DNA of 64,000 nucleotides from Tubulanus polymorphus (lineage: Eukaryota > Animalia > Nemertea). The stretch spans positions 8,680,001 to 8,744,000 of the forward strand of contig NC_134025.1 in assembly GCF_964204645.1 (NCBI RefSeq). Reading direction: 5' to 3'. Every line of letters begins with the position of its first letter. Positions within the stretch are counted from its first letter, which is position 1. The position numbers and the translations under genes were made by a program. Of this stretch, positions 34,801 through 63,900 are shown piece by piece. The notes under the pieces were generated by a model. It was not told where the DNA came from. It was given only the letters and a program-made list of their open reading frames with translations, and did not search any database.

Positions 34801-36144
34801 TAACTATGGTATGGTTTACGGCAGCTTTCTCATATTATGGAATGGTTTTGACAAGTTCTGAGATCGAAAAATTTCAGTCTCACTGTGCTGTGCCACCACC
34901 AGGTAAATTTCAATTTTCTAACAGAAGGAAACCTGCCATGTGGGAATAACCTAAGGTTGAACAAATTGTACTACCAGTATTTTGATGTTGTGTAATTCCA
35001 TTCAATCTGGATCAGCTTTTTTATTCAGCTTATAATAGTGAGTGATATATGGAAATTTTCTGTTTTCGATACAGATAAATTTCATTAGTAGCAGATGGTA
35101 ACAGTTTAAGCGTTAACATTTTGCCTATATATTATTTGTTTATGATCTCTAATAGATTTTTTTTCAAATTGTTTATTTCAGCTGTAAGCCAAGGTAACCA
35201 TACAATACAAAAATATCAGTGTTCTTTGAACTGCCATGAGTTAGCTGATGATGATTATATTACTATGATCATATCGGCTTTGGGAGAGTTTATATGTAAG
35301 CATATTCTTGTTGAACTCTAATTGATTTGAAACAAAACCTTTCCTGTACAATTAATTTGACCTTGTTTTCTAAATCTATCTTTTCAGCTATACCTATAAA
35401 TTTTGTACTACTTGACTATATTGGAAGGAAATACACTTTAGCAGTGAACTGTTCACTGGCTGGTATTGGCTTCATGTCTTTACAAATATGTTCGTCACGG
35501 GCGGTATTATCTGGCATTTCTATGGTTATTCGCTCATTTTGTACTGGTACATTCCTCGCTACATACATCTATACATCCGAGGTATATCACGGATTTAGAT
35601 CTATAAGAATGAATCCATTTTTCAAAAAAAGACATTCATAAAATATTAAAATACCAATATCTATCTTTAAGGTCTATCCCACAACAGTGCGTTCTTTAGG
35701 ACTTGGGATAAATAGTTCTTTTGCACGAATTGGTGCGATGGTAACCCCTTTTGTAGCTCAGGTAGGTATGGAAATTATCATGGAAGTATCATCTGCAAAG
35801 AGATTATGACAATATTAATGTAAATCTAACCCAACAATTTTCTCTAGGTGTTGCTAAATTCATCTCCACATATCACTGCGTTCTTGTATGGTGGCGTGTG
35901 TATATTAACTGCTGTCATAGCCTGCCTTCTTCCAATAGAAACAAAAGGCCGAGAGATGCCAGTAAGTACTTGGTATCTTTAAAATATACAGCTTTAAACA
36001 ACTTCTTTTGTAAATTTAACTATGAAGTACAAATAGCTGAGTATATGGTGCATTGTACTGATAGTTTTGATGTATGATAGTCTTTTTGTTCTCTTTCAGC
36101 AAACTGTTAGTATGTATGAAATACCTATGCCCGATGGAAGATGA
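31879..36144 (+). CDS. SVOPL: SVOPL/SVOP-like major facilitator superfamily transporter (SV2-related, SLC22 clan), about 516 aa, 14 exons
   Basis: Phase-consistent GT-AG exons 31879-31963, 32664-32791, 32900-32998, 33248-33319, 33418-33542, 33973-34036, 34246-34374, 34505-34633, 34740-34902, 35182-35295, 35388-35581, 35672-35761, 35848-35961, 36100-36144 (1551 nt). Motifs [90 protein letters not shown] and the overall pattern favour SVOPL over SVOP (judged by eye). Confidence 0.92.
34066..34156. mobile_element. Partial MITE in SVOPL intron, same family as 60251-60383
   Basis: AGTTAACAAGTGGATA core and ...CCTTTGAGCAGCTGGCCCCAG terminus shared with the 60251-60383 copy. Confidence 0.55.
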
Positions 36145-36611
36145 GGAAATTTCAGAATTAAAACACTTGTACAAGTTTTAACATTGAATATATTTACAGA
36201 TACTTTTTTGAGGTCATGTGTTTGCTTACACCTGACTACATGCATATTATGCTATAGATGATGCAATATATTTCTATTGTTTTTAGTGGAAATGGAATCT
36301 CTTCAGCCAGTAACACTGAAATAGATAGGCTGGATTACTATTTGGTGTAAATTTTTGTTAACTGTGATATTGTGCAGTACATGAAGATAAATTTTATTCA
36401 CTTGGTATATTGTAAAGTAACATGTTATAATTGTCTGTAATTGCAATACAAAAGTTTGAATCATGAATTTTACAGTAAAATATCATGAGAATATATTTTA
36501 TTGTAAATGTTTTACGGCTATATTGCCACATGTGATTTTATCCACACATACATTATTTTAGTAAACTCTACAAAATTCTAGATTAATAATGTTACCAATA
36601 TGTAAATGTGG

Positions 36612-39908: not shown

Positions 39909-42900
39909 TCAAGGCGTTGCGAATTGGTGTTCCAGTAACTGTTGGGTACGTGAAGTTTTATTCTTTTCAACTGGCGTATTTTCTCCCGCTTCTTGAGCAA
40001 ATAGCTTCATTTTCTCTCTGAACGTAAGCTTCTCACCTGGAGCTCTCGAGTCATCGTGCTGTGAACTTCGTTTCGTGGCTTCGATACGTGAACGAGGATC
40101 ACGGTATACTTCTTGTCCACCGACAACACCTGGAGTATTCGTAACCATGTAATGCGGCTGAGATTTTTGGGGTGGTGTCGAATCAGGATCGTAATCAAAG
40201 ATCGAACCTGGTGTTGATGGAGATGTGGGCGTGTGTGGTTGGAATCCCGATGAGGAAGACGAATTTGTGCGGTATGATTTTGGAGCAGTATTCGGCTCAT
40301 AAGGCTGGAATCCTTGCATAGACAATGAAGCCGGAATACCGCTGTTTGTAGAGTTATTGTTATTTTTGTAAACTTCAGTTGTCAGGTTTGTATCGAATGA
40401 AACGCTCTTTTTCGGAGGAACGGCAGGTGGAATACGAGATGTACGATTGGTGTTCTGGCTAGGAGGTTGTTGACGATGCTGATTCATTAATGCGTATGAA
40501 GAATTACGCTGCGGAGGAGGAGGACCGTCACTCCTTTCATTGTGAACTTTGCGTGGGCCTGAAGAATTGATGTTTTGATTGTTCACTGAGATATTGAACT
40601 CTGGTCGATTTTGGTTAGAGTCCTGAGGTGAATATGGCTGCTGATAGTTAGCGTATGAGGATGTCAATGGTTTTGTATATTGGAGATGTTCCATTTGTTC
40701 TTGACGTCTGCGTTCATCCTCTTGACGTCTCCTCTGTTCCTCTTCTCTCATAGTACGTTCTTCTGCCTCCCGAACCTCCTGCATCTCACGCAATTGTTCC
40801 TTTTCCTGGAAGAAAAAATGATTTTTAACAATCCAATAGGTCAGAAAATTAAACCATTTCTCAGTCATAAATTCTTACCATTTCTTTCTTTCGACGAATT
40901 TCTTCCAAACGTTTCTGTTTTAGTTTCTCTTCCTCTTGAAGAACAATGCGTTTATTTTCTTCTTGTTCCATTCGCTGTTTCTCTCGAATTTCCTAAAAAA
41001 TTTTGGAAGTGTGAGAATGAAATAAGTGTATTGCACATTCCTTTAAAAAACTTTCAGATTGCAACATACATTTTGGTTGAAACGATTAGAAATTAAATTT
41101 ACTTTTAATCAAATTTTCTAAATCAAAACAAATTCAAGCAAAATCTTATTTAGTTCCTAAATCAAGCAAAAACAGTTAACAAGCGCATTTTCATTGAAGC
41201 AAATATCTTTGTAGTACAGGCGAAGTTTGTCTCATCAGGGGACTAGCATTTCTGATTATCAACATCAAAAATGAATGAGAAAAGATTCAAATATATATTG
41301 GTTAGAATATGTCACATTTGCTAGGTTCATGGACATCATTATATATCATCAGTCATACATAAGGAAAAAGATGCTGAATTATTGTTAATAAGTGCAATAG
41401 AAGTAAAGACTGGATAAGGTTAGTAATTTCGAATAAAGCTTGTAGTTAATAGGAAGGCCTAACATATAGCTTTGGCACCCTGTACTACTGACACAGGCTT
41501 GACAAGAAACACTACAAGCACAAAGCAGCAAATCAAAACAATAAAAGTGCTAAGTTATTATGAAGTAAAAAGGACACAACACATAAACTGATTCAAAGCG
41601 AGGTACAGTATTAGTAATCAGTGTTAGAAGTATCTACATGATCAGTCAGAATGCTTAATATTACTCATGAATGATTTATTGGTACAAGATGCAAATTAAT
41701 GATTGCTTAGCTTCAATTACATCTAATAGATTTCTTACACGAATCTGCACCAAAAGTAAATCAAATTATTCTCATTAAAAGCATAATTTCAAGTTAGCAC
41801 ATTTGGATTGTTAGGTGTTTGTATGTATGAGGTATTGCAGATTTTTGTTGGATTACTCAATACAAACTGCCAATAGTGTTAATAATGAATCATCTAATTT
41901 GATTCTGTTTCTGTTTGAAGAACAATCATTCTGCTGATTCGTGTGTTTATACTAACGCTAACCTCATGGAACGACATGCGAGGTGCATCAAGTTGTCCCC
42001 CTACCCTCTGTTTACGAAGCAATGCTTCGTGTTCTCGCTCTTGACGCTCATGTTTTCGCTGGAGACGCTGACGTTGCTCTTCGCGTTCCTGGTCGTACAT
42101 TTGCAACATACGTTCGTGCCTGAAAACAACACCAAAATTAGATTTCAAGTTGGCTTTAAATAAATTTTAAAAATAATAAAATAAAGATCAATTCTTGTAT
42201 GCCAATTGGAATATTAAAGTTTTACCTTTCTTGCGATTCCTTCTCAATTTCGATATCTCGGATCTTCTCTTTTTCTTCCTGTTGTTTTCGCATTATCTGT
42301 GACTTTTCCAGTTCCTCGATAATCATTCCCGTGAACTTCTGCCGAGTCTGCACAACAAAATGCACATGAAAAATCAGAGATTCATATAAACTACAACTAA
42401 CAAATTCAATTGAAGGATATCTTACCTTAGCTTTATCAAGAATATCATGATCATTATCGTCTTCATCATCATCTTTCTCCTCAGCTTCTTTGACTCGTCG
42501 TTGAAATTCTTGTTCAATTCGTAAATGCTGCAAACGTGACAATTCCTCATTTGTCAAATGTCCTTTTGCTTGTAGCTCAGCAATTTCACGTTCTCTGATT
42601 AACCATGAGTCTCTCTCCCGTTGTTTGGCTTCTCGTTCCTTCTCCTCTTTCTCCCATGGTGATGGCGAAGCAGGAGCCTCTGGTAAAACAATCCGCAGTT
42701 TCGCTTGTGATTCGTGGGTATTGATTGTTTTAAATCTATCAGCTGAATTATTTGAGCTATATGGTGGATAAGTTGGGCTCAATTTGTCAAAGTTAGATTG
42801 TGGAGCCATTGATGGTGGTTGGTACCGCTGATTTTCAGGCAAACGCTTTCCATACGGATCATCGATATCATGCTCGTATTGGTACGCAGTTGGAGGAGGT

Positions 42901-45900
42901 GGTGGGGGTGGTAGATCAGGAACTTCTTGATTGATGTGCTCATTGTTATCAGGGGGAGGTGGTGGTAAGTGATCAGAGGGAGGCGGTGGGAGATCTGGTG
43001 CCTCATTCGTTTTTTCAGGAAATGTCTTAAATATTACACGAGGCTCGTAATTATATGCCGATGGTGACCTCGGTATCTGATTATCTTGATTATACAATGA
43101 AGATCTGTTCTCACTTGGAGGGCGTTTGCTACCAGAAGACAATCTATATTCTGGCTCTCGTCGTTGTTCTACATTTCCATTCATTCTCAATTGTGGCTGA
43201 CCATAACTAAACGGCTGCTTATCACCTTCATAGAAGTGAGGTTGGGTTCGTGTGTGGTCAATACTTAACTTCGGTATCTCATGTTGAGTAATCTTAGGCA
43301 TATCTGGCTTTTGTGCAACTTTTGGTTTTGGAGGTGTAGTCAGTGCTCTTTCCTTATTCTTTAGTTGGAAGAAAGGCGGTGTCATTTCTCTGGATAAAGG
43401 TTGCGTATTCTGATAGAACGAAGGTTGTGTGAATTCATTTTTTTTGCGAGGTACATCGAATTCATCTTCGATTCGACGCATTGAGTCCTGACGAGCAGTT
43501 TGCCCTTGGGGTTCATGACGATAACCAGTGGCCGGGTCAGGTTGGTTCTCTTGCGACGGAGGTGGTGGATAATAATTTGGACTGCGTTGGTCATAGGTCG
43601 GACTTTGAGGTATTTCAGGTCTGTTATTATAGCTTTGACCAGCTGGCTCTTGGCGTAACGCATTCTGTGATTGATTCATATAATTGGGATTAATCTGCTG
43701 TTGCTGGTAATAACTATCAGGTCGACCTCCTTGATTGGCAAAGTCAGATCTGATGCTCTGATTAGACACATCGTGTGGTGGCTGGTCATTGTACTTTTGG
43801 TGCCATTCTTGCATTTTTGGATTCTCTAGTTCATCTGATTTTGGACGATATTGGTTCACATCAGTACTATTGTCTTGGTAGCGGGAACGTGGTCTATCAT
43901 GTTCTGAATTGACTGGTGGTCTGCTGTTGCCATACGGGTCATTATTACGCATATTTACGTCACATCCATAGTATGGTGCGTTTTTATCAATGCCGGCATT
44001 TGCAAGGTTTGGATTCGATTTCGAAAATTGGTTATCTGGTCTTCTTGTGTATTCATTCTGTAGTTGTTGTTGTTGTTGATGTTGGTGGTATTCACGAGGT
44101 AATGTACTAGACGACTGATTTCGTTTACGAGATTCCTCATGTTCGACATCGCTATCGAGATTTGATGTAGATTTTGATCGATTTGAAGCATCTCTAGATG
44201 ACTGTGATCCATAGGCTGGCCTAATAATAGGTTGCGGTGGTCGAATATAAGGATCTCGTGGTTCATCATCTGCAAGAGAAGAAAATGACTTTAATATATA
44301 TCCAATGACTCAAGTACCTATTATGCTTAACTGCATTCTTTACTTTATACACTTTCATTATCTAATCACTGATACTGAATTAAATACTAACGCATAAATT
44401 ACCAAATTAAATAACTGAATGAAAAAATTTAATTACTATGAAGAGAATCATGCTACACATTTGGAAACACATGTACAAGAAATAACATAATATACAGTAA
44501 AATTTATATACCCGTCTTTTATATGAACAAAACCTCATGTTTTAGAGATTTTCTTCATAGCCACTGCTACTTATGTTCACTGATAGATCTGGTGAACTCC
44601 GGCTTTTTTCGTCCAACTTTTCAGCCATTGAAATACGCTTTTTCACCGATCCAGACGCACAATGCTGACCTACACTGAACCGACTTTCACATTTTTTGGC
44701 CACAGTGTCTTTCGGTTCCTCGAGGTCGCTGATTAGATCTTTTAATGACCGAGCTTTACGAACACTACTGCTACCACCGAATAATTCCTTACGCGCTTCA
44801 CTGAGTTTTTCAGAAGAACCCTTATACCCACCGCTACTACTTAGCCGTTGTAGCCGACTACGCGAACTGTCATTATTACTACTAGCACCACCAAAATTAA
44901 GTTTTAAATCTTTCATAGATTTTGACTTAGTTTTTAACAGAGCCATATTACTAATACTTGGAACACCTGTAATGTCTTTCTTAGAAGGTAAAACGTCACT
45001 GGACAGGTCAATGTCCATTAAAACACGATGTCGCCATGAATTACCACTTTCCGACGCTCGGCGATTAGCATCGTTTTTATTATTGTTAGTAGTTTTCGAT
45101 AATATTCTCGCGGATGTTTCTGAGTATTTTCGAACGGGTAATCGTGAATATTCATTTTGAACGATCGGTTCATTTGTAACACGAGCGACGGGGCGAGCTT
45201 TATTTACAATCACAGCATCAACGCTATCTGATGAACTTATTTCCCTTTTAGTGTCTTTATCTCGAGAACGCCTCCGCCGGCGTTTTGAAGCTGTTTCAGT
45301 TGGTGTTATTGATACCGGAATTGACGATATACTGTGCCGCACTATAACAGGACGTTGAACATTGCTAAGATTTATTGTTGCACTAGACCGAAAAACACTA
45401 TCGGATAAATCATCAAATGCACTTGAAATTTCAACTTTTGGTTCATCATTTTTTGGTATTGGATCAAAGTCAGTGTCAATCAAATCAAATGCTTTTTCAG
45501 CTGTTGATTTTTCAAAATCGACAGCTCCTAACTCAGCAAAGAGTTTCACCTCCTCAGGCTCTGGTGTTGGTTCCCGTTTTAACACAGGAGCAGGCTCAAT
45601 ATCCAGTTTTTTTGATGACAAGTTCTTCATTGATTGTGAATGGAATCTAGAAAGTGAATTTAGTTCAGCACCGACTACAGGCTTTATTTGTTTCTGTTGA
45701 TCAGCAACCGGAATCAGAGTAGCTTCAATCTGCTTTAATTTTGATTCTGATAGCAACGGTTCAGTTTTCATCGCTTGAACTTCAAATTTTTGACTTAAAC
45801 TTTTCAATGTTCTTGATCTAATATTACTCATGGCTTGTCTGTCAAGTTTATCATCTTCGATCTTCCGTTTATCTTCTTCACTTTTTGGCACTCGACTTTC

Positions 45901-48900
45901 AAGTATTTTTGTTAAGTCTTTTAATGAACCAGATTTAATTCTACTCAATGTAGCTTCAGCTTGTTTATTTTTTTTTGCTTCAACTTTTTGATATCGCTGT
46001 TCCATCATCTGTGTCAAATCTTTAAACGATTTTTCCTTTGGTTTTGCCTTAGCTTCATCAGCTCCTGTTTTCACCATCCACTTTTCAACTACCCTAGTTA
46101 TGTCAGAAATATCACCCGATTTCACAAGAACCTCCTCATCTTCATCAGACCCAACTTGTTTCAGTTCATCAGCTTTTGGAATATCATTCAGATCAACATT
46201 TTCCATGTTTTTCCATGATCTTGATAAATGACGTGTAAAATAACTGGTTTTTCTTCGAGGATAAGCAGATTTTAGCTCGGATGGTTGAGATTCAGTTGAC
46301 TTAGATATATCTTTACTCTCAGTAGCAAATTGTTCACTTTCACTTTTTGGCATTCCTTTATCCGAGGCCTCTTGCAAGACACCAGTTATTTTGGTTTCAG
46401 TGACAAGGTTATCTATATCAAGTGTCTGCTGAGACATTTTCATGGCCTTTTCTTCTGTAGTTGGAGAAGCTACTTTAACAGCATCATTTGTTGTATCAAG
46501 AACACTTAATTGCTCAGAGGAATCTTTTGCATTTGATTCTTTAGAGCAGGATATAGAGGAATTTACTTCAACATGAGTAGTTTCATCTATTGGAACACTT
46601 GAAGACACATCATGCTTTATTTCACATTCAATTTGAGGTTCTTCCGATACAGTAATAACAGACTTGTCTTCGAAGTCTGTATTGCGATGAACCAAGGACG
46701 TCATATCATTAGAACTTAAAGATTTTGAATTTTCTACAGAATGTACCATATCACTTGTTTCAGGGCCATTATCCTTTTTAGAACCACGAAAGCTGAAAAA
46801 CGATGGCTTGCTTTCTTGATTCGATTTGGTGTTTGAAGATTCTTTTTCATCTTGAGGTTGAGCATCTTTGATGTTAAAAAATCCTTTCACACTTTTAATT
46901 ACTTTAGACATAGCACCATCTTCATTGCTTTGAGCATTAGGTTGGGTGGAATCATTGGTGATTGATTGACTAACAATGCAATCAGGTACATTTGATTCAT
47001 CAACTTGTTCCCTTAGTTCAATTGAAGATATTTCATCAATCGTGCTCTCAACTTTTGATCCATCAACTTGTTCACTTAGTTCAATTGAAGATATTTCATC
47101 AATCCTGCTCTCTACTTTTGATCCATGAACTTGTTCTCTTAGGTCAATTGAAGATATTACAACAATCTTGCTTTCTACTTGTGATCCATCAACTTGTTCT
47201 CTTAGGTCAATTGAAGATGTTTTATTTATCTTGCTTTCCACTTCGTCATCTTTTTGTTCAACTTCTCCTCTTAGGTCAATGGAAGATGTTTCATTTATCT
47301 TGCTTTCCACTTTGTCATCCTTTTGTTCAGAAACATTTGTGATTATACCAGTATCCTCCGAAAATTTAGTTTCAACAGGCGTTGCAGGCAGTTTTCTGCC
47401 ACTGGACCTTCGTCTGATCCTTGATTTATCCTCACTCTGCTCCAAATGTTCAGGTTTTTTGTAACTATTTTCATCTTGACTACTCAAATTTCCTTGAGGT
47501 AGTGTATTACGCTTTATTTCATTATCATTCGATATTTCTAGATTTTCATCTTCATTGGCAGAATTTCTATGTGGGCGTCTTCTGCGAATAGGCTCACTAC
47601 TTTTCTCAGCCACAGGTGGTGTATTATAATCAGAATGTTTTAAATCTTCTTCTCTACCAGTAGATTTTCTTTGAGGGCGACGTCTTTGAGGCTTTCCCAC
47701 ATTGTCATTCGATATTGTTTCCATTGGAACAGAACCTTCCAAATTGACATTTTTTACCATATTCAATACCCCAATTTCAGACTCCTGTTGTGAGGATGAA
47801 TCAACAAGGGTGTCATTTACAAATGACGGTGCACTTGGCTGAATCTTTTCATCGCTTTTACTTGCTCGTGTACGCCATCTTCGTGGCAGTGTACCGGCTT
47901 TCAATGTATCATTCATTGGATCCACTTTTTTGCCAAGCCCTTCATTTTTTGCGAATGAAATACGTCCTTGCGGCAATGTACTGTCTCTAGTTTGAACTGC
48001 TTCCTGTTTAGACGATAGAATACGTGTTCGTTGTAGATTTTCCTTAGACTTATATTCATCCATTGATACCAAGTTTTCTGAATCGGAACGAAATCTTGAT
48101 TTGGCAGGAATTGATTTTTTTGGCGGCGAATCAACATCAGCTTTTTGCTCAAGTGACTTCAAACGATCCTTTAAAGATAATCCAACAGAAAAACTAGATT
48201 TGCCTGATGCAATAGATTGAGCACTTTTTGCACTCTCTTCTTCGAAATGATGAACTGAATGTCGGAGAGACCTTCTTTTTGATACATGATCCTGTGATTT
48301 GGGCTGCTGGTCACTTTCAGCTTTATCAGTTGTATAAAGCGATCTCAAACGCATTTTTAGAGATGGTATATCAGTCTGTATTTTTTGTTCTTTGGCTTTG
48401 ACATCTGTTACAGCACTTTTAGCAGCTTCATCTTCAAAAAGATGGATTGATTTACGTAAAGAACCTCTGGACACTACATCAGTTTTTTCAGGTGAAGTCT
48501 TTTTCACTCTCAGAGTTACAATTTCTTTTTCACTGTCAGCAGCATCTAAAGATTCAAACTTTTTGGCAAAATTTTTAAGTGAGCCGGGAGGTTTACGTCT
48601 TTTGTCTTTCTTTTCTGGCGGAGGTAATTTCCTATTTTCAAAGGCTTTTGCTTTGTCTTGAAACGACTTTGATGCACTAATCAAATCAATAGGCTCATCA
48701 TCATTTGCAATTATGTTATAAATAGCTTCAGAGTATTCAGGTGAATGATTTATTGTACTCAATCTTGCAGACGATTTCTCTATTTGAGTTTCAGGACAAC
48801 CAGAACTGATCTTGCTTGGAATCAAATTATCACTTTCACTTTTGGCAGCTGGAACATTGATGGGTTTTTCAACTTCAGATTTTCGCCTCACTCTTTTTAC

Positions 48901-51900
48901 ATCATCAATATCATTGTCCATTTGTTCCTGAAATTTATCAGCAAGACCTTGCAGTCCTTTTAATTTTGGCTGAGATTGCTTGTCATCAGTAGCTATATCA
49001 TGTCTTCTTGGAGGAGCCACAAAAACCTCCCCATCAGAGGTATCAGGAGCTGATTTCATCTTACCAAGAGATATCTTCCTTACAGGAACAGAAACTTTGG
49101 CTTGTTCCTCCAATCCATTTTCCTTGTGAGCTGTTTCAACATTTGTTTCACCAACTTTTGTAGTGATATCTACATTCAGTTCAATATGTTCATGAGATTT
49201 AGGAGATTCCTCAGTGACTCTTTCTTTATCTTTTCTTATAGGTGACTCTATAATTCCTCCAAGAATCTCTTTACTTAAACATTCTAGTGGCTGACTTACC
49301 AATTTGCTATCAGTAATTTCAGGTTCAGTTTTTTTCACTTGTGCAAAGTCTGAAATGAAATTTTCAGGTTTCATTTGCACTTCCTGTTCGTCGATAACAT
49401 ATGAAGAGTTCTTTTCAGAAGTTGCATCTTCACTGTTGTCAGTTTCCACCTTATCTTCTATGAATTTGCCATCATCATAACCAGAATACATATCAAAACC
49501 ATCTTGTTTTTGGATGCCAAAATTCCTTCGGTCGAGACTTGTAGTTTTCCAAGAATTGTCACCAACTGAACTCGTAAATGCATGTCTCTGTGAGTTCATT
49601 TGTCTACGGTCTAAGCTCCCATAGCTTGAAAGTGATTTTACTTTATCACGAGGTGAATAACTACCAACTGTAGCTCGTTTGTCATTTTCTTCGAATTTCT
49701 GAGTTATGTTTTTCAAAGAGCCAGATGGAACTACTTCCAAATTGCTAAGTCTAGAGGAGCTTAAAGATGAACTTTCCCGGGATTTTACTTTATGATCTCT
49801 CTCTTCACATGCTTGTTTGATATTTCTCAAAGATGTGCTAGCAGATCTTTCAGCACTACTAAGTCTTGGAGAACTTGATTCATAGTCACCAGCTCTCTTA
49901 TCTCGTTCTTCATATAATTTAGTTATATCCTTTAGAGACCGAGATTTCATCTTATTCAGACTCCTATTATCTGCATTGTTAGAACCATGACTTCTACCTG
50001 GCTTTTGCCTGAGCACAACTTCTCCTTCAGCCGCTTTCTTATCATTGGCTTCAAACGAATTTGTTAAGTCTTTCAATGATTTAGATTTCCACAAACTACC
50101 GATTTCGGAATGGGTACTGATTGATTTCTTTGGTTTGATATCTGCAGGCACCTTGTCCCTATCAACTAATGTCTTCGGGTGTTTGCTGGCTTTTTCAACC
50201 TCTTCAAAACTCTGAGTCAAGTCTTTTAATGAGCGAGATTTGCTCATACCAAGTGATGATAGAATACTGGCCATTTTTTTAGGCTTTGTTTTATCTGCTT
50301 CAGCTTCAGTAGTTGAATGAGGAGCTGTGTTTTCAAAAACATCTCTTAGTGATTTAGTTCGTCTCATTGCTCCAAGTTCTTTTTCTACATAATTCCTTTC
50401 AGCAGAAATAGAATGTCTGCCTTCTGAACCTTTCAAAGATTTGACAGGTGTCATTGGACTTGTCAGTCTATGGGCCTTTTCATTGATATCAATAGGAACT
50501 GTGCTGAGTGAAAGTGGTCGAGAATTAGATGCTGAAGGTATATCTGACGACACATTTCCTGTGCTTTTCAATCTACGATCTCGAAGAACTGGTTTTGTTG
50601 CTACTGGAGGTGGACATTTTTCTGAACTGGTGGTGTTTTGCTTCAAAATGGGTTTCACTGGCATGGTTGGCTCATTCACGCGACTTTCAGCTTTTTGAAT
50701 CATATCAGATATAGATTTGCCTCTGGTTCTCAAGGCTCTTATGTCTCTTACTCCTTCACTCACTTTGCGAACACGCTCAACAGCCAGGGCAGGGTCTGCT
50801 TTGCCTTTGTCCCAAGACTCTAGATTAGTGATGAAGGAGCCGCGACGGTACTTTAACCCTAATTTGTCAACTCGGTACTCCATGTTATCATCGATATCAT
50901 CATCACGATCACCATCATCAGGTTGACTTCCAGAAAAGGCATCGTCGATTAACTGTTCTTCAGACACAACTGAAGCACTATCTGAGCCATAGACATCACT
51001 TCTGTCCGAACTTTGACCACTTAATTTTCTATTTGTACTGAAACCGCTGTCAGAATGATTTTCATTACGATCTGTTTCTTTTTCAGTAACAATACTGTAT
51101 TCCTGTCGTGGGCTTCTTGGATTGAATGAACTATATTTTTTTGAATTATCAGCTGGGCCCTTGTCAGTGATTTCATATTTTGTATTCTCAATATCCCCAA
51201 CATGAACTGGCACATTCGTGACCTTCAAAGGCATCATTTTAGGTGGTGAAGAAAGTTGCCGATCGATTTCATCTTTTAATCTTTGTTCTTCCTCAGTCAA
51301 CTCTTCATCACTGAAGATATCGCTTAAGTTATTTGCAGCAAGGTGATCACTGTTGCCTTTTACCTCTTGATTTGGCCTCTGATGTTCTTCATTGAGAATG
51401 TCAATTTGTATAATATTTTCTTTAACTAAAGCATCATTGTTGGATTCTTGATTGCTATCAGGTGATGGCATTTCCTTGTCGGAACTCCTATTTCTGTCGG
51501 TTATGGTGGAGATTTCCTTATCTTCATCCGTCAATTGAGCCTCATCTAAGTAGATTACCTCCTCCGATTCAGAATTTGGTTCATGGCAGCATGGTAATAA
51601 TGTGGAATTTTCAATGGGATCAGCTGTTCCATCAAACGAAGGCACTAGTTCATTGATGGAATATTCTTTCATCATTCTAGTTTCAGCAGTAATGACAGGT
51701 ATTCTTTGTAAGTCAATATCACAGTCAGTTTTGTCAAAGCATTTGACTTCAGCAGTAGAGTGAGTGTCTTTCTCAGACAATTCACTCATATCACAGACTG
51801 GTAAGCAAGGAACAGACTGCCCCAAAACATCAATTTTACTTTCATCATAAACAGCTTCATAATCTAAGTCTTTCCCTTTCACAAGATCATTTCTAAGGTC

Positions 51901-54900
51901 ATATTCATTCTTTGGCTCACTAGATTCATTGGCAGTACAATGAATCAAGTCACCATTTACAGCAGCTTCCTGATTGATACCTGCAGAGTGATCATTTGAA
52001 ACCAATGTCATCTCAGAGGAAAAATATTCTATATCATTCTTAGACTTTGCCTTTTTAATTTCCTTTTGTTCATCATCTTCCAAGATTTCACCAAAATGCA
52101 TAGATTTATCCTCTGATTCATTTGTCAAACTGCTATCATCTTTCATTTCAGATAGATTGGATCCTTTTCCAAGATCGAATAAATCTGATAACCTCTGCTT
52201 AAGTACACTATCCTCAGAACTTGTCTTTGAATGCACTTTGTCTGTGTTGTCTGTATCCGCTTTTTCAAGATTGAGCAGATCCGACAATTTTCTTTTCAAA
52301 GGGAATTTTTGTGGGGTTGTATTTAGCTTTTCATCTTGGTCACTTTTTTCACAAAACAAAGGCGTCTTATCTGATATAGTAACATTATTCAGCTCATTTT
52401 GTTGGCAGGTAACTGCTTCTAATGTTTTACATTCATTCTGATTTGAATTAGGCATAGCATTCTCTGATGACTTTTTGCGGTTATCACGGAATTCAAAAAA
52501 CTTTGAAATTTTTACTGATATAGATTCATCTTCAATCATAGTTTCTGTATCACTGGCTTTTGATTTATTTTGTTTTGCCAGATCACCTGAATGGTCAGGA
52601 AGATTAATATCCCCGGAATCTTCAATTCTTTTACCTAATATAGCATTATTTTCTGGCAAACTATTGCTCTCCTTTGCAAAATTTGATGTTTTATCATCAA
52701 TATTATCATTTATCAATTGAGAATTATCATTTTTGCCATCAGTGCCAAAACTGAAGAAGTCTTTTATCTTATTTACGAAACTATCCTCTCTTTCTGGGTC
52801 CGACATTTTTATATCAATATTCGTTTTAATTGTTTTTTGCTCGCCCCGCTCGCTATCACCGTCGGTATTCGACACCGAACTTTGAAATTCACTCATATTT
52901 GATAACGCGAATATATGTAATCCTTTATCGGTTTGATTGAGTGTTGGAGTGCGCAAATCCTTGGCCTCAGTAGCTATTAAGTCCCTCCTCAGGCTCTGTA
53001 TAAAGAGATAAAGAAACAAAAGGGATGACACATCTACTCACTATCTACACAGTGAGTCGCTGAAATAAAAAAGGATGTGCAAATAATGGATCGCAGATCA
53101 ATCACCCTTACCCCAGTAACAACCACAAAAATATTGTATATTATTAACCAAATTACTATGATTCTTAGTGAAGTTTGTTTTAAGGGGAGAACATATCATA
53201 TCCATTGTTTGCACAACCACTCGCGTTAGTACCTGGGTTAGTGTACATGGACACAAACAAATGTGCCACAGGTAACTTACTTAATGATGGAGTAGATTTA
53301 GTCTGATCTTGACCTTTGAGCAGACGACCTTGGAATTCTCTTGGTTCAGGTGCTTTGTTATTGTAGCGTCTCTTCAAAGTTACTGAACTTTCACCATCTA
53401 TGTCTACCTGGTACCTAGCTGCATCTTCACTACGGGGCCTGGATGGCTTTTCGATCTGCGATGTTGGCCTTCTCGGTGATGCTGCAAGGGAATAAGAAAC
53501 TAACAAAATGAAGACTTTCAGAATTTCAAGGCTGGTTTCAAGAGATTTTTTGCAACGGGAGTCAGTAGTTCTTATGTGTCTACGCTTCACTAATATTTTC
53601 GTGATTGTTATAACTGAAGCCCCTGAGTCAAGAATTACTTGCACAGTGACAGAACTATTAATAATGACCCAAATACCCGTGAAACCAATCCCTTTTACAA
53701 AAGACATGGATCAACATTCATGCATAACTGCCATTAGCGTAAGGGAATTCATTACAACTGTTGACTAACACCTCTACTTTAAATCAGATATTACAATACA
53801 AAACAAGACAATTACCTCTTTGTATTTCAGGGGATGGTTGATTCAGTAAGGTGGCAAGTCCATGGTAAACTGCAGCTTTACGGGCAACTTTCAGTGTTAC
53901 TCTGTCACCTGTTTTTACCATCAACTCAGCAGCCCTAAAACAGCAATATAGATGGTTATCATTAATCTCAAATACCAGATAAATAGCATAGATTAGACAT
54001 AGAAATAAATATATAATCTGTGTGGGAATAGTTTTTAAGAACTCACTTTTCTTGAGAGACACCAATTAAACTCTTGCCATCTACTTCTAAAAGTTGATCC
54101 CCTGCTTGTAAACGGCCATCCTGAATAACAGAAGTTATATCAGTTCACTCTCTAGAAATCTAACCATCAAGATGGCGTTTTATGACATGAGAATGCATGC
54201 TTACCAATGCTGCTGCCCCATCTGGCACGACAGACTTGATATAAATACCACGTTTATCCTGATTTTCGCCCTAGAGAAAAAATAAAGCTATTACAAAGCT
54301 GACATTGATATTACAGATAAATATAGTGCATCAACGGTAAGGATGCATGGTGGGCTACACAGAGGCATGCTTTCAAACACTTCATATCATTCAAATACGA
54401 AAACATGAAATGAATTTATGTGGCAATTATCTTTAGACAAAGAGCAATACAATAAATTGAATTTTCAAAACATATCCATAAATGACGATGAAATTTTTCA
54501 TCTAAGAATGAGGCCCAGCAATTGACGCTTGCCATTTTATTGTACAGCGATTATACTGTGTATGAAGACAAGACATTCAATGTGTAAATAAAGACCTGTC
54601 TACATAGAAATTCTTTAGACATTCGACAATAGGGCAAAAATTATGGGGACACTTTTTATTTCCCAATATAAAAGTCTATCTTCCACTTCAATGAATTCAA
54701 AATATTTTTGGAGATCAGATTTTCTCGCCTAGTCGAAAAACATTGATATATGTAATATAAGGGCCAACATTCCTTAGATGTTTAAGTCTTTTTTTCATAC
54801 CAAACATCGACAACCCATTCTAAAGAAATATAGATTACATAAGGAATGTTTAAATATTGATTCGAGGAATGTTTGAATTTCGATTCGAAGAGTATAAAGA

Positions 54901-57900
54901 AATTATTCCAAGCTATTAAAACAACATTGCTACCTTTTTGAGTCTTTTAATGTATAGCCTATTTATACATGTTAAGTCAGATTTAAGAATGATTATGATA
55001 AATCTAGACGACCGAGTAATACAATGAATTACACAAAATCTTAGTATACAATAAAACCAACTTCGAACAAACATGGTATGTCTTATAAAATCAACCATTA
55101 AATTCTCCATGACAAACTTATTTCATGAAAACATGCCTAAGAGATATTAAGTGCAAGCCACCATGCAAGGAAGGTTCAATCACAATTAATTTACAGCCTA
55201 AGAACGAACAATTAAAAACATTGTTCAATAATGGATGGTCACGGGCTGAGACAATATTATTCAATACAGTATGACAAGTATGTAATTCCATGGGTGAAAC
55301 TTTCTGAATGCAATTAATTGATTAAAATACAGTTACAACTGGGTTTAATAAACGCATTTGAACCTGAAATCCCTTGAAGTGTTTATATCAGATATAAAAA
55401 CTGTTCCAAATATTCTGGTAGCACGTTTGTAAATCAAAGCTTTCAGAAAGTTTATCCCACTCAACCACAACACACCACCATTCACGCAATAAAAAGCAAA
55501 TGTTGAAATCCGATTGAATATGATGATAATTTCTAAGAGTGGAATTGCTCTTAAATTCCTGTGGTATGTTAACGAAAATCGAATAATTATGTTAACCAAT
55601 CGTAGAACTATTCAAAGAAAAAAAGTGTGGCCACAAAAATAATTGAATCTCAACTGGTATGCTTTTTATCATAAAAACAAGAAAATAATAAACAGTTGAA
55701 AAAGGTTAGCATTTGTTAATAATACGCAGTCTCGCAATACACATTCATACACATGTAATATAACGATAAAGTATAAAACATCTAGAAAATTAACTCAATG
55801 AATACCCAACTAAAAATCCTACATTGGCATAAAAGAGAGCTTCGCCTCAGTGACCGCATTGAAAATATATCAAAATAATAAAACATATACCGGGTACACA
55901 CCCTAGTCAATAATCAGGTATGACACAAAATAAACTGAATTGAATTTGGGTCATCAAATAACGTGATTTGAAATAATTTCTCTTCTTTTATTCAGAAACT
56001 TATCCAGAAGACAAGGCATATATGAATCTGATACAAACTTACCAGTCTTATCACGATAATACTGAATCATATTGGCCAGTTTGTCATCAGATCTGAAGGA
56101 TTCCGCTCGACCTAGACTTACGCGTAAAACTTTTCTCATACTCAGATAGAAAGCCTGCTGTCTGCTACATTAGCAATACTTTTATAATGAACTCATAATG
56201 AACTCCTAATAAACTGGGTTTTGAAAATATTGTATTGGGATTTTCTTACACTATTTCAAAAATATCATTGTTTCAAATTTGACGAATGGATCGTGAAGAT
56301 AAGATAATGAGGACAAAGAGGAAAAATGATGACAGAAGATAAATCAAATGGTGATATTCTATTTTCATATAAAATTCTATATCTGAAATGTTCTTCCAAT
56401 TGTACGCAAGTTAGAATTAAGGTATACTGATCACTTGCTTAGGTAAATACTCTCTTTAACGAACATAGGGTGTACGAATATATGTGAATCGGCGCCAAAA
56501 CAAAACAGGAGGGGTCAATTACATTCTTTATGTCAGACTGAAAATGAAGCATGTCCAGTAATGCGTAAAATTCCCTTGAAGTCACCACAGTTTAGCAATT
56601 TGGAATTAGCACGACATGGCCATATACAATGAACAAATTGGAACCAATTCAATTAGAGACAGTTCATTCAATTCAATCAACCAAATATTTCTCTTATATC
56701 CTGAGTAAAACATATAATCAACAATTTACAGCTTTTATAATGGACTTGGCCGAAATAAAATGGTTTGCCAGAGTTTAATGAATGCATACAAACTAAAATC
56801 TTTGCACGACCAATAGCAATGGTATTTTGATTTAAAGAATAATTTGCCAAATCAAGTATGAAGTCTGAAACACAGCAATTTTAGTTACTAATGCTGATAT
56901 ATGTTAATTTTAATCAATCATAATAGATCTACATTCATATCTTTTCATTTCTATTTTGAGATTTGTTTCGTAAGTTATATATTCAATTTCTATTCAATTA
57001 AACAATAAGGGCATCTTGAAAACTAAATGAAAAGCCAAAATGTAACTATTCAGCAAATCGACTATAAAATCAAATCATTGAAAACTACAAACTTATTTCA
57101 GTTTTAATGATTTACGAATTATGCAATTTAGATGATTAGTGATAATATAATATCCCTCGCTTTACCTCGTTAAGTATCAATCCGTACTATCCGAGTATCT
57201 GTCGTACATATGTCTATAGTCCAAAACACATTTACAGCACTCACAATGTCATGGGTAAGGAAGAAAACTTTTTGCTATGACCTATTCATTATGGCACTGT
57301 CACTGCGATGTATTGCTAGTACTGAGTGGGACGGTCTGCGCTTTATTTCGGTTAAGGCTCGCACCAAGCAGGTTTTTCAGTCACGGACGAATGTATGTGT
57401 ATAATTCAGCGTTAATACCCCTGCATAGAAATCCATTGAGCTTCCATGGGAGAAAATACATAAACCCGCGATTTCCGTAGACAAAAGCGTTTTCGTTCAT
57501 AAACGCGCATACCGGTGCAAGAATAGGTGAAAATATGCAAAGCATGCACAATTTAATGTCTCACCAATAGAATTTATGGTGGTATCTCATTTTGGCTCTA
57601 AAACGGTCTGAATTCTTGCCACTGTGCGACGTATGTGACAATATTCTAAAGCCTATTGCCGAGAAATGTTACAAATAGTTAACAAATATACCGAGCCATT
57701 CTATATTTTGTTGATATTCTAATGGGGATAATAAATTATATACACAAAATGTACATATTAGGACATTATACTAAAAGGATTGGAATTGAGAAGAAATGAA
57801 GCTCTTTAGAGACAATATTTAATCTAATACTTAGTATTTTTAAATGAAATATTATGGTTGAGGTTTACTTTAAAAATTCCAAGAGAAAATGAAATAAATT

Positions 57901-60900
57901 CTTCATATTTTTAGGGGGATTTCGACAACATCAAACACAAGCGCTAATATCACACATCACAAGTGTAAACCAGTAGCGTGGCAGACTACAGGAGGTCTGA
58001 TCCCTGCATTGAAATAATTTCTGATTCCTCTTTAGTATCCTGATTGAAATATAGTGACACTAATATAAATCATGAGCAAGCACTTTCAAACCATACAACA
58101 TTTTTCTTGACACTAAGTTAAACGACACTATGACCAGAAAAAAAAACATAGGCTACAACAGAAGACACCCATGACATAAATATTCCTTCCACCATTAGGG
58201 AATGCGTTCTTCTTTTATTACGGTATTATTTGAATTAAAGTCTGAAGAGTCACATTAGTGCATTAATGCAAAAGTGCTTTATATCGCTTTCTCTTTTAAG
58301 AATATAATTCAATTTAGAATATTTCTAGAATAAGCAAGCCATTCTAATCTATAGAATTGCTTGAAAAAAGACCTTCATTAAGTATGGCAGTGTCATGCTG
58401 ACAATAGACAGCTTAATCAATATGCGCATTGTATGATTTTTCAAATACCTAAAATGATACTTCTTTTTAGTCATCAAAATTTTATATTATCTGAACAACG
58501 AGCTATTTCATGATTACTAGGGAGGTATGAATTTGTCACTAATACATAACAAACAAAGCCATATTCCTCTTTCCGCGCCGAATGGACAAATACAAGCAAT
58601 CACACGCATACACACATACATACATAAACTAGATAGGTTAGCAAGGATTATAATACCATAAACACGTATAATATAACAATTTGTCATGAAAGTTATTGCA
58701 AACGTTCTTTATATATAACCAATGTCTCATTCAAAGCTGGCATTCAACATATATGCAGATTTGTATCATTGATCAGAAAAAAACTTACCGTTGCAGCAAC
58801 GATGCTCAGACCCATGCTGCCCTTTACTTTGTTGAAGACAATCGTACAAACTTCGGGCTCGTTAGGGACATCATTGATGGACCCTCCAGCACCAGGTTGC
58901 CTCGGGGGTGGAACCTGAAATACATAAAACATTGTACTCACTTTGGAACTACCCTGATACTCATTCTATCATAGGTTTATCTGAGAATAAAAAGCCACTA
59001 GTAATGAAATAATTCAATACATTGAAGCAAATCAACTTAGAATTGTCCCAAAAAATGATATGAGAAATTCAATACCTTAGCTAAGAATTTGGGAAAGACT
59101 TTGTAATTAGCCTTGTGCTTCCTTCTATGAGCATGAAAAAACAGATCTCGACTAAAGAAAATCTGCATCTCAAATAAAACTCCTAGCACAATATCACATA
59201 ATCCTCAACTTCCATACATGATCCAGCAATAATTACTGAATTTAAACGCATATGGTACAGTTCGAAACACAGCGTCATGAAGATGTAATCACACTGCTGA
59301 GCATAGAGAAACTAATGCACAATGTGAAGAACATAAAAACATCGTAGTCATGGAAAAGCCAATGATCGGTTGAGCAAAACAAATAGCTAAGCGGATATGT
59401 AGCATGATAATGAAAATCAATGAAACCTGTCACAGCATCAACTACAGCGCTAGAGATATACCAATCAACTTAATGAGATCAAAATATGCTATCAATTTGA
59501 AATATTAACGACCACATGTAGTGATGGGTACATTATACAAATGGTAGGTAGGCGCGAGATAGATATAAATGGAATATTAATTAAAAGCTTTGATGAATGA
59601 TGATGAAAGATGCTATACAACTACAGATCCTCATTTCTTTGGACTAAGACATAAACTATACTGACTTTATATCATATGTCATATGTAGAGGAATAATTTA
59701 GACTTAATAGACATCATCATTATTCATGAAATTATGAAAGCAATGCTGCAATTAATTTTTCTCATACCTCATTTGGCGGGCCCATGTACACCTTCCACAT
59801 ACCAGGAGAATTATGATTGATGATCAAGCGACAAATTCCTACGAAAATTAATGTACATTTGATTACTTCAATTAGGAGTGAATTCCTACAAAATTCATAA
59901 ATTAATCAGGGTTTTACTAGTATTCAATTTCCCACTATTCACTTTTCAGTTTCATTTTATTCGATCATTAGGTACAATTAATAAAATGCATGAGAGGAAT
60001 ATTTACCGGTTTTACATAAAGGTTCAACGTATTCTGGTAAGCCATTTGGCACGTCACGAACTATATCACACGAATAACCATCTTCGGGAAGTAAAAATGG
60101 CAAGTGTAGATTGGGATCCTCTTCAAGGTGTATATCGCGACCTTCACTACGTATCAGTTCATCATTTGATGTTTCAGCAATGTTCACCATTCTATAAGAA
60201 ATAATATCACAAAATAAAACTACTGAAATTTGAATTAGCTTTCACAAGTTCAGAGGCCATATACTCAAAAGTTGGTTTGAGTTAACCAGTGGATAGTTGA
60301 CATTGGGAAAATCAAAAGTCCATTGTAACTGTGGTATTTATCGGCCAGTTATCTTAAACTAACTTTCGAGCGACTGGCCCCAGTCCTACACTGATGAAGA
60401 GGCAGAAATGAAAACAAATTAATAAATGTTTTTTCTAACGCAGACTTACTTAAGGATGAGATCATGCGGAATACTTTGTTCATCTCTCATGGGTATATAG
60501 TTCTGTAGAAGTACACGCATCTGCAAGGAATTCAATTTGAACCACGACGCGCTACGATTGATCAGATCATTCGGATTGCTTTTCGGCATTTCCAGTAAAT
60601 CAGACGCTTGCAGAATACGGGCCAGGTGACAGTCAGCGGCCAATTCGAGGCCTTGTTTCTCTGCCCAAACTTCGACACGACCGAGTCGTCGATGCAGCCG
60701 ATGGCCCCACAGTCGAGAACACAACTGCAAACGCGGTTCGAGTACGAGTTGGTTAAAAAGCCACATATTGATGAAATGGAAAAGTTGTGAAAACAATTGG
60801 ATGGTCAAAGCTGCGTTAACGCGACATCTTCTCAGTAATGACATCGCAGCTGACATTGTGGATAAAACATCACCTGCAAAAAGAAAAAATGCAATGTCAA

Positions 60901-63900
60901 TTCCACAAAAGTTTATCGATGTTGCAGGGAATTCATATCTCCTTTATATTCTCTGAGTAATAATTTTCCTTCACATATGATTATAGTATAAAGATGTCTC
61001 CATTTTTATAAATTTCAAACTCCCATATCAACTGATATGCAACAAAAATTTTGGAAGTACAAAAAAGCTAGAAAAAAAAAACATTCAAGCTTATTAAGAA
61101 ATTGATTAAAATAAGCAAAGAAAACCATCAGCTAGGGAACAACTTTGGAGTCCATATGACTACAATTATAGACAAGAATATATTCAGGGTGCAAAAAACA
61201 CTTTGTCAGTAATAGAATTATTACAATATATATCAGCAGTGGAAATGGGATAAATTTAGGCATGCAAGAATAATTTCAACTGAACATTGATTTACCATAG
61301 GTTTGTATTTGCATTTTTACGAAGATTTCATTATATAATTTGTACATTAAAATCTATGATTTCAAGCATGCAGTTGGTGCACGAAAGATAACAATTTTTA
61401 ACTAATCAAAGCCCTTAATGATAGCTGTCTAACTATTGATGATCCTCAGTTTCATGTGTTCATAGACAATTCATGCATATAACATTGATACATTTGTATT
61501 TAGTGCTTCATTCAGTGTGTCATATATTAGACATACATGTATTTTAGTTAGCAGCTGTAATCTACACTAAGGTATTACTAAGCTCATCTTAGAAAAATCA
61601 CTCATTTGAAGTTTTCTCTTTTTTGTACGTGGAAGTATAGATACAAACATACTGTTTAATGAGATTTCATCTAGATTAATGATCTTTAGAAAATCAACAG
61701 GAAATTCATCTTCTTAAGAAAATCTGCAGATTTGAAGTCATTTGAAAATGAATTTCTCAAATCCAGGCCTGCACCTGACTCAATAGGTAAAGGAAATCAT
61801 ATCCACAGAACAAATGATGATTCTAGAAATTTAAGAAATTTAGATGACGGAATCGAATTTGTTTACCCATAATTGGTCGATTTCTTTGAAACCGATCACG
61901 CATCGCTGAAGAGCGGTCTTCTGAAGAAAAAAGAACTAGCCCTTTTAACGTTTTTGTCACTTTTACTGCTTATTAAAAGAAATATACTAACCCGTCAATA
62001 AGAATCTGGGATTGAAATAATTGACATACGGGGACAAAATAATGACTGGGGAACGGCAGCAAGATTCATATGCATGTAATAATGTCAATGAAGCAAACGT
62101 AAAACAGGAAAACTAGGCTATTGGAAACAAATAATTCTATATAATTTCTCTCATCCCAATGTCCTTTTTAACTAATTCTCAATATAAAATACAATATGAA
62201 ATAACATGAATTGCAATGATATTAAGGATCATTAAGATGATCTGAGAATTTACCATTGTTCCAATCTTCATCGGTGTCGTCGTCATTGTTGTCGAGGAAT
62301 GCTGGCATCGCTTGTTGCAAATCTCGCTCTAAACATAACACCAAGTGATTGAACCCGACCTCCACTGTTTCCGCGAGCACGTTCTGTGCATCTACGCTGT
62401 AGGCATTCAGGTCGCGATCTTGTTTGAAGAAGTTCAATATCTCCGATGCATTCGCCATCCAAAAGGAGAGGCCAGCTGCGTCATCCCGATTTTCCTATAT
62501 GATAACAAAAATATTCTTAACTCTACTTAAGACAGGGTACCCCATTAATTACCACTGTTTGATTTTATGCGCAACCTAGCAATTTCATCTGTTTAAAAAA
62601 ATTTCCTGACTGACTACTGTATTCCCTGATTTTTTTAAAGAAGAGAAACTGCCCTGACTTCTCTGATTTCCAGTTTAGAAGCCACCCTGTTAGATATACC
62701 AAATTTTAAGAAACAATTGACAAATATATTCACCTCAATAGTGCACTGCACGAGGCTAGCGATTTTGTTCACGAATGCTGTCAGTCGATGTGCACGTTCA
62801 GACGGATTATGTGGGTATGGACCTGTCACACGAAATCTCGTCGCCATATACAGCGAATACGTCGGAGCTAACTTAAACATCACACTCAGCGGGTCGATAT
62901 CAGTTATCAATGAAGCCAGGAAAGCATCTTCTCCTAGGAAAAAAGATCACATCATTCAGTTACGGTCTGAGTGTTCTTTTCACGTTAGCAGCGGTGAAGG
63001 TTGATCAAATATTTACCATCATCTCTAAATTCTAGAGAAGCGGGGAGTACGTCCTCCTGGTAATCAGTGCTTGGTGGTGGAAGAGTATTGGGATCTTGCA
63101 TGGCCCTAGAAATGACACATAAACATACTGATCTAAATACTCATTATCTTAAAATACACAGAATCACTAGTGGTAGTAGTGTAAATACCTATGTTGCATC
63201 ATATCGTTGTGTGGTGGATAGGGTGCCTTAGGGTCACCTTCATAGATCGGATCTGTGGATTTCTGCAGTGGAGACGTCACTCGTTGGAGCTGCTTCTTTA
63301 AAGTAATACTCTAATTAAAAGACACACCGACGAAAAAGACGAAAGGTGTTAATTGAAAGCGAGATAAACTATTAAAAAAAAAACTGAACTGAAAAACCTG
63401 TCGTCAGTACATAAACTAAACTAGGACAAACCATGTTGCCTTTAAAATGCAGAGGTACATAAGGTGTAAGGATTGAGAATAACCAAATGGAGCAATGTGG
63501 ATGTCTGTGACTAAACCAATTCATAATAGGCTACTGGAAAAATGATTAGTGCGAGTGAATAAATCAGGTTAATTTCTAGAGAATGAAATCTTTAAAGGTA
63601 CACAAAAAATGTGCTCATCCGTTTAACAGTAAGGGATGTGAATATGATTGCTTAAGCAATTTTTTCTGTTCTAACAAAACTTGTAATAAGGTCAGAACCC
63701 ATGAAAGTTGCAATTTATAGTTGCTTACCTCACCGACTAATGGATCGACAAAGCGGAATAGATTATGCTTGCCAAAACGAATAGTGTTATTGTCTTGCAG
63801 TAAAGTAGTTTCATAAATTCGTTGGTTGTCGACATAAATTTCAGCATCTTTCACAATTGGCGTGGCAGTAACTATACCTTCGGCATGAGCGATTACACAA

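Follow-up and report, generated by a model that had tools for sequence, protein, structure and literature searches.

A giant exon in the afadin gene of Tubulanus polymorphus with a long open frame and predicted F-actin motifs

The CnoRD and CnoRI isoforms of Drosophila canoe (Cno) contain an alternative exon of 718 residues, 14.2% of them serine, that replaces almost the whole disordered tail of the protein (PMC10399776, in the sections used here). We describe an exon of 8,484 nt in the afadin gene of the nemertean Tubulanus polymorphus, which carries a stop-free frame of 2,817 codons and lies on the minus strand of a 64,000-nt stretch of contig NC_134025.1 (assembly GCF_964204645.1, positions 8,680,001 to 8,744,000; hereafter the window). 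A preliminary description of this DNA held that nothing similar was described for afadin/canoe; the fly exon makes a long disordered alternative tail in this family an already known kind. We found no literature on an afadin with a giant exon or on an afadin with a nested gene. The way in which the disordered tail of afadin/canoe links junctions to actin is not settled, and its actin-binding site is called controversial (PMC10399776, same sections).

Three other systems bear on the locus. First, ANK2, ANK3, and Drosophila ankyrin have multi-kilobase single exons that encode extended unstructured polypeptide and occur in independent lineages (PMC6660793, in the parts consulted). Second, s-afadin is a short splice form with the RA domains and without the C-terminal actin-binding region (PMC4436838, in part), and is described as lacking only the last ~174 residues (PMC10399776). 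Third, short linear F-actin motifs (SFMs) are VxxLxxxFE-type nine-mers, as in Lifeact and ITPKA/F-tractin, that are predicted as single helices in disorder and often have a serine or threonine before position 1 (P1). In the parts of the published SFM table of human proteins that were searched, at most nine copies are listed for a protein (XIRP1) and one for most, ANK2 and ANK3 have one each, and afadin is not listed (PMC13364712).

The giant exon and its host gene

The host gene is afadin. A DIL domain was matched at E 1e-25 (Pfam), the DIL exon matched afadin homologues at 62-74% over its length, and the window protein has the afadin hallmarks of a DIL domain followed by one PDZ domain, together with an afadin-type coiled-coil and C-terminal motif. 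As first described, exon 53481-53281 can be spliced in phase 1 to 44269-42426 with the afadin frame left open, and the model spliced from 53281 to 44269 encodes 1,478 residues from the window edge; full-length homologues imply ~370-440 residues of N-terminus beyond that edge. A tree over the FHA-to-PDZ region was built from 33 afadins, namely the window protein and 32 selected from the 210 proteins fetched, with no annelid, nemertean, or phoronid among the named rows. In it the window protein clustered with molluscs with support of 96/91, which points to a lophotrochozoan host without a close annotated relative. The parts of the gene are listed below; X2 is a sequencing run that we take as RNA.

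Past the window end at base 64000, minus strand: the two N-terminal RA domains of afadin, expected to be encoded further upstream.
53816..64000, minus strand: upstream afadin exons (FHA, DIL, PDZ), from the DIL match, homologues, PDZ exon joints in X2, and the open spliced model.
53281..53481, minus strand: afadin exon after the PDZ domain; main donor 53281 in phase 1, used in X2; predicted internal phase-0 donor at 53408.
44512..52995, minus strand: giant internal afadin exon, 8,484 nt, a multiple of three; flanking afadin sites both phase 1; joints in X2.
44542..52995, minus strand: giant open reading frame (ORF), 2,817 codons from the acceptor; Ser 14.0%, Lys 10.1%, Glu 9.3%, Asp 8.4%; product predicted disordered.
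44270..44511, minus strand: intron between the giant exon and afadin exon 44269, 242 nt, removed in X2; holds ATTAAA at 44433.
39909..44269, minus strand: downstream afadin exons (Pro-rich, coiled-coil, and C-terminal actin-binding region), from joints in X2 and matches to other afadins.

We took X2 for RNA on the ground that exactly 10 GT-AG introns are cleanly absent from its contigs; none of these 10 joints was present in the DNA-like runs X3 and X4 from the same sample, and X5 gave a single matching 33-nt low-complexity piece, which was uninformative. X2 contigs join the afadin exon to the giant exon (53281 to 52995) and the giant exon onward to afadin (44512 to 44269), so the strong acceptor that the preliminary description placed at 52996 is real and used, and the region 44542-52995 is transcribed. 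Because splices were seen at both ends, the exon is internal in this RNA and not terminal, as had been proposed, and the ATTAAA once assigned to the ORF as its poly(A) signal sits inside the intron that is removed; a terminal form in other tissues is possible. Nor is the ORF a free-standing nested gene, the alternative then offered for ATG 52896, as its RNA is tied to afadin exons on both sides; what survives of that proposal is a separate start, the main rival discussed below.

Although no single contig spans its whole length, we infer that 44512..52995 is one continuous exon. X2 covers at least 4,564 of its 8,484 nt in the contig pieces listed, with 13 further pieces; bin arithmetic leaves 52549-52785, 51058-51554, 46215-46608, and the 285-nt intron upstream without cover, which proves nothing. 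Contig depths (20.7 on the PDZ side, 2-12 inside the ORF, and 132 for the 3' contig) are unable to rank isoforms. The exit donor 44512 sits 30 nt past the ORF stop and has a splice-matrix score of 4.1. The skip junction 53281-44269, in frame by sequence, is not among the X2 joints listed; contigs drop rare forms, and a junction missing from them proves nothing.

The minus-strand frame is stop-free from 53037 to 44542 (2,831 residues stop to stop), which confirms the ORF of 2,817 codons first described, and the ORF takes up 8,454 of the 9,011 nt between the two afadin exons. Each of the remaining five frames has 76-425 stops over the ORF, and the chance of an open frame of this length was estimated at ~1e-94, in line with the earlier judgement that a chance origin is very unlikely. 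GC by codon position is 47/39/26% in the ORF and 57/41/30% in the neighbouring afadin exon, a similar pattern, and overall GC of the ORF DNA is 36-37%. Neither the domain content nor the exon ends indicate a transposable element: the Pfam scan of the ORF protein gave no family at E 0.1, and therefore no transposase, reverse transcriptase, or integrase domain, as had been noted by eye, and a repeat comparison of the exon ends found no matching terminal direct or inverted repeats.

Three minor features lie in the exon. An antisense frame of 163 codons (44669-45160, plus strand) overlies the 3' end of the ORF and is probably a shadow of the coding strand. Two X2 contigs meet at 44699, where they share a single letter and one first letter is left unaligned; by k-mer arithmetic, branch points would lie nearby at 44728 (after AG) and 44670 (before GT, a predicted in-frame donor to 44269), and the meeting point may simply reflect a gap in coverage. 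One X3 contig at depth 3 has a 1-nt deletion at 52344 that is absent in X2 and X4 and was judged an error.

The predicted protein and its motif array

The ORF protein is predicted to be largely disordered. A FoldIndex-type score was below zero in 89% of its 51-residue windows, and a single-sequence AlphaFold2 model of 935 residues had 715 residues with pLDDT below 50 (mean 42.6), mostly low-confidence coil with isolated helices; the ORF protein has no transmembrane-like stretch. Homologue searches returned nothing of substance: a word-based search gave 0 of 7,978 candidates (1,549-4,930 residues), phmmer with a 935-residue part gave 0 matches against 1.84 billion representatives, and PDB sequences gave a single chance match (E 1.7). 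ESM Atlas matches were all below 0.9 at low recognition (971 and 1,085); some fell in disordered actin-associated clusters, and we treat them as leads only.

A motif repeated in the ORF, for example SLKDLTQSFE at 50232, fits the SFM core of Lifeact/ITPKA. First, the published core pattern, VxxLxxxFE, occurs in five copies compared with a shuffle mean of 0.28 (none of 5,000 local shuffles reached this number, and the reversed protein has one), and the strict copies have hydrophobic residues at P1 and P4, an aromatic residue at P8, and Glu at P9, as SFMs do. Second, a version anchored by a preceding Ser/Thr gave 10 copies and 0.38 in shuffles. Third, the anchored pattern widened to the residues of the published table gave 18 copies against 2.4 (0 of 3,000 shuffles; 7 in the reversed protein). 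Finally, 9 of the 11 copies in the modelled stretch lie inside isolated helices, in a low-confidence single-sequence model in which helix accounts for 296 of 935 residues. A 17-copy pattern and a motif profile were derived from the ORF itself, and these are descriptive, not tests. From its sequence, the ORF protein is predicted to carry an array of weak F-actin-binding motifs, in four clusters, and it also contains a tandem repeat.

49690..50715, minus strand: motif cluster 1 (SFM-like, Lifeact/F-tractin-type), six copies, four strict; 6/6 in predicted helices; DNA repeat family D3, spacings divisible by three.
48150..48666, minus strand: motif cluster 2, five looser copies; 3/5 in predicted helices.
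45780..46029, minus strand: motif cluster 3, three copies, one strict.
44620..44919, minus strand: motif cluster 4, three degenerate copies by the ORF-derived pattern, one of which also fits the table-derived pattern.
46987..47329, minus strand: in-frame tandem repeat, units of 63 and 69 nt (21 and 23 residues), ~5 copies.

Five motif copies are 67-77% alike in DNA, with spacings divisible by three, and this DNA-level likeness suggests duplication rather than the de novo origin proposed in PMC13364712. The ORF resembles the SFM carriers XIRP1 and XIRP2 in its VxxLxxxFE-type core and in its predicted single helices in disorder; it differs in having mostly Leu at P1 and no Pfam Xin match.

Among described systems, the fly isoforms are a close precedent. 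In CnoRD/RI a long alternative exon after the PDZ region supplies an unrelated Ser-rich tail in place of the disordered tail and the C-terminal actin-binding region, and the exon here would do likewise (14.2% Ser there, 14.0% here). The likeness is one of description, and the differences are plain: the fly exon has 718 residues and this one 2,817, so the arm would be ~4 times the size of the fly tail; the host here is lophotrochozoan; the Cno exon is described as part of one uninterrupted isoform, and the entry splice observed in Tubulanus does not keep the frame; and the sections of PMC10399776 used make no mention of a motif array in Cno. Like the giant ankyrin exons, the Tubulanus exon is a multi-kilobase single exon for unstructured polypeptide on a junction or membrane scaffold. 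The ankyrin exons are described as in-frame and microtubule-binding, whereas the predicted ligand here is F-actin, through many copies of a motif, and in-frame entry is only predicted. The single SFMs of ANK2 and ANK3 presumably lie in their giant exons. The motif copies in the Tubulanus ORF outnumber those of any human protein in the parts of the SFM table searched.

Entry into the open frame

Donor 53281 is phase 1 and entry into the ORF at acceptor 52995 needs phase 0, so a direct 53281-52995 fusion of afadin to the ORF fails, and the afadin frame ends in a TGA after nine codons. The features on which entry turns are these.

52967..52969, minus strand: TGA ending the afadin frame nine codons past the 53281-52995 splice, giving a short afadin of 756 residues from the window edge.
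52897..52995, minus strand: pre-ATG leader, 33 open codons, weakly coding-like in the ORF frame; includes the afadin-frame stop.
52894..52896, minus strand: ATG in the ORF frame, the first one past the acceptor, with A at -3; its product would have 2,784 residues.
52808..52830, minus strand: candidate poly(A) signals for a short afadin RNA, ATTAAA (52830) and TATAAA (52813), by sequence only.
44670, minus strand: predicted phase-1 donor within the last 42 codons of the ORF, score 6.7, which would fuse it in frame to the C-terminal half of afadin.

An assembly error as the source of the mismatch was rejected, since the X2 piece 52995-52786 has no other letters and no gaps. As in s-afadin, the 53281-52995 splice gives a short afadin without the C-terminal actin-binding region; unlike s-afadin, this form would lose the whole 731-residue tail. 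The PDZ-side X2 contig stops at 52786, 27-44 nt below the two poly(A)-like hexamers, without a loose end, and no poly(A) tail was seen near 52808..52830 in X2 contigs.

The explanation that we prefer, with about even confidence, is a giant afadin isoform of ~3,900 residues in which the tail is replaced by a predicted disordered arm of ~2,800 residues, entered through a phase-0 donor beyond those seen in RNA. The ~4,000-residue isoform of the preliminary description would thus be nearly right in size, and wrong in the splice on which it relied. In this explanation the upstream exon 53281..53481 would have two donors. The distal donor, 53281, would serve canonical exon 44269; its junction with 52995 would yield a short afadin truncated behind the PDZ domain, perhaps with a poly(A) site near 52790. 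A more proximal donor in phase 0, for which 53408 is the best candidate, would join 52995 in frame, and such a junction of a very long mRNA would have escaped capture. Translation would stop at 44542, with the remaining afadin exons as 3' untranslated region (UTR). The RA, FHA, DIL, and PDZ region of afadin binds Rap1 and adhesion molecules; the giant isoform would keep this region, and 10 to 18 weak Lifeact-type motifs would grip actin filaments at many points, so that the protein might act as a long multivalent junction-to-actin tether or bundler.

Two observations favour in-frame entry at 52995. First, the 33-codon leader is open, as are 17% of shuffles, and under three of four models its coding score is higher than that of any of 610 overlapping windows of non-coding sequence without stops, drawn from 38 distinct stretches; under the best model, 11 of 2,000 composition-matched stop-free shuffles reached the leader score, and 10 of 2,000 did so for a control piece after the ATG. 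This coding signal gives moderate support to in-frame entry. Second, donor 53408 scores 3.9 with a gene-trained matrix, near the 4.1 of the used donor 44512, and entry through it would give 3,522 residues from the window edge, or ~3,900 with the N-terminus. Exon skipping from 54205, 58789, or 59768 into 52995 would also fit phase 0. An internal acceptor at 52586 is in frame and scores -0.6, and was set aside. In the 285-nt intron, a candidate 18-nt microexon (53059-53042, minus strand) has the best acceptor of the region (11.1, compared with 8.3 for 52995), followed by a GTGAGT donor. It keeps phase 1 and would lengthen canonical afadin by six residues, from 1,478 to 1,484; it was not seen in X2 RNA and would leave the ORF frame mismatch unmended.

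Several results weigh against a giant afadin isoform. First, RNA shows a single entry splice, which is out of frame and sits on a contig that is unbroken across 53408, and the RNA comes as contigs from one sample in one study. That the junctions 53408-52995 and 44670-44269 are not among the X2 joints listed proves nothing, as rare forms are dropped from contigs. Second, the other afadin donors score 6.0-12.1, and 53408 falls under all 18 training donors. Third, under the remaining model 37 of 610 windows reach the leader score, and the leader passes one of six shuffle tests (118 to 1,007 of 2,000 shuffles in the others), tests that for one model detected 16 of 28 true ORF windows. Fourth, P1 is Leu in most motif copies, not the commoner Val, and the wide pattern separates poorly without the Ser/Thr anchor (28 copies against a mean of 13.0, with 23 in the reversed protein). 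Finally, other afadins offer no counterpart: among the 210 proteins from the afadin search none has more than two strict motifs and none matches the ORF (best E 0.5), and among 90 hits of 2,243-5,000 residues the longest with a PDZ match has 3,171, no afadin of comparable size or with a comparable array was found, and nearly all retain the coiled-coil and C-terminal regions.

If the giant isoform exists, the exchange of an afadin tail for a Lifeact-like array of 2,800 residues would offer a clear example of actin bound through many weak contacts, and it suggests that SFMs are worth seeking in CnoRD/RI and in other unannotated afadin introns. Because of the frame mismatch, gene predictors would miss or split such an exon; the mismatch also offers a simple test for an unusual translation route.

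The strongest competitor, which we regard as possible but clearly less probable than the giant isoform, is a separate protein of 2,784 residues begun at ATG 52896, either from an internal promoter or first exon within afadin or, on the same mRNA, by ribosomes that re-initiate past the stop of the short afadin. It would borrow the last exons of afadin as 3' UTR or fuse to them through the predicted 44670 donor (3,473 residues). This account takes the splices as observed: past the afadin stop (52967..52969) the next ATG, 70 nt on with none in between, belongs to the ORF and has A at -3, and the 285-nt intron holds predicted donors (53112, score 6.3; 53149, score 5.4) for a non-coding first exon. 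Yet no first exon or start site was observed in X2 contigs, and the 33-codon leader has no stop in the ORF frame and is coding-like in part. Most documented cases of re-initiation behind a long ORF come from viral RNAs in which stop and start overlap at a structured element (PMC10275272, in part). Here, of the marks of TURBS-type termination-reinitiation, we found neither stop-start overlap or adjacency (the two are 70 nt apart) nor an upstream structured element, the region folding no better than shuffles (z 0.33).

The observed mRNA might also be a two-product message, encoding a short PDZ-ended afadin and a 2,784-codon actin-binding protein by re-initiation or by a +1 frameshift. We consider this improbable; if true, an animal junction gene would have a cellular mRNA made bicistronic or recoded under the control of splicing. 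Its frameshift version, in which an antizyme-like programmed +1 shift at or before UGA 52969 would let the observed mRNA itself encode the giant protein and the shift frequency would fix how much short afadin is made for each giant one, is very unlikely. The ORF frame is indeed the +1 frame and is open across the afadin stop, and afadin-trained models favour the afadin frame over the first 30 nt and the ORF frame over the next 69 nt; ORF-trained models, however, favour the ORF frame already over the first 30 nt, and no stimulatory hairpin stands out in folding. The codon before the stop is UAC, which is not known as a +1 shift codon of antizymes.

Equally doubtful is a poison or relic exon, whose inclusion would truncate afadin or trigger decay while the long frame went untranslated: the observed inclusion does place a stop far upstream of several exon junctions, two large searches found no ORF homologue, and two of the three single-nucleotide polymorphisms in the ORF change residues (too few to weigh), but 2,817 stop-free codons at such low GC with afadin-like codon-position GC, tandem and dispersed repeat units whose lengths preserve the frame, and diverged motif copies that retain P1, P4, P8, and P9 point to selection on a protein.

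Other observations in and around afadin

Further alternative forms of afadin are suggested by the window. In the 4.5-kb afadin intron, depth bins place unspliced X2 contigs at about 54760-55085 and inside 57022-57427. The former overlaps a 19-nt segment, 54819-54801, with a good acceptor, a phase-0 donor, and an ATG at 54818 that opens six codons with Gly2, Cys3, and Cys5; this may be an alternative first exon or microexon. Past 53281 the afadin frame meets no stop for another 33 intron codons (53280-53180, minus strand), and retention would give another short afadin ending. The 78-nt afadin intron 42425-42348 (minus strand) has no stop and a length divisible by three, and its retention would lengthen the coiled-coil region by 26 residues; X2 shows it removed.

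In other animals, one flatworm afadin had nine wide-pattern matches (reached in 1 of 1,000 shuffles), which are scattered and unlike the ORF motif, and this candidate was rejected. Hymenopteran afadin models of 2,900-3,170 residues, many labelled uncharacterized, have Ser-rich inserts after the PDZ domain and keep the coiled-coil and C-terminal regions.

None of 102 short frames from 1-39500 matched a Pfam family when scanned. Tail to tail with afadin, at about 31000-36500 on the plus strand, lies what appears by eye to be a multi-exon membrane transporter gene, which we take to be of the SV2/SVOP-like major-facilitator type, a label unsupported by that scan.

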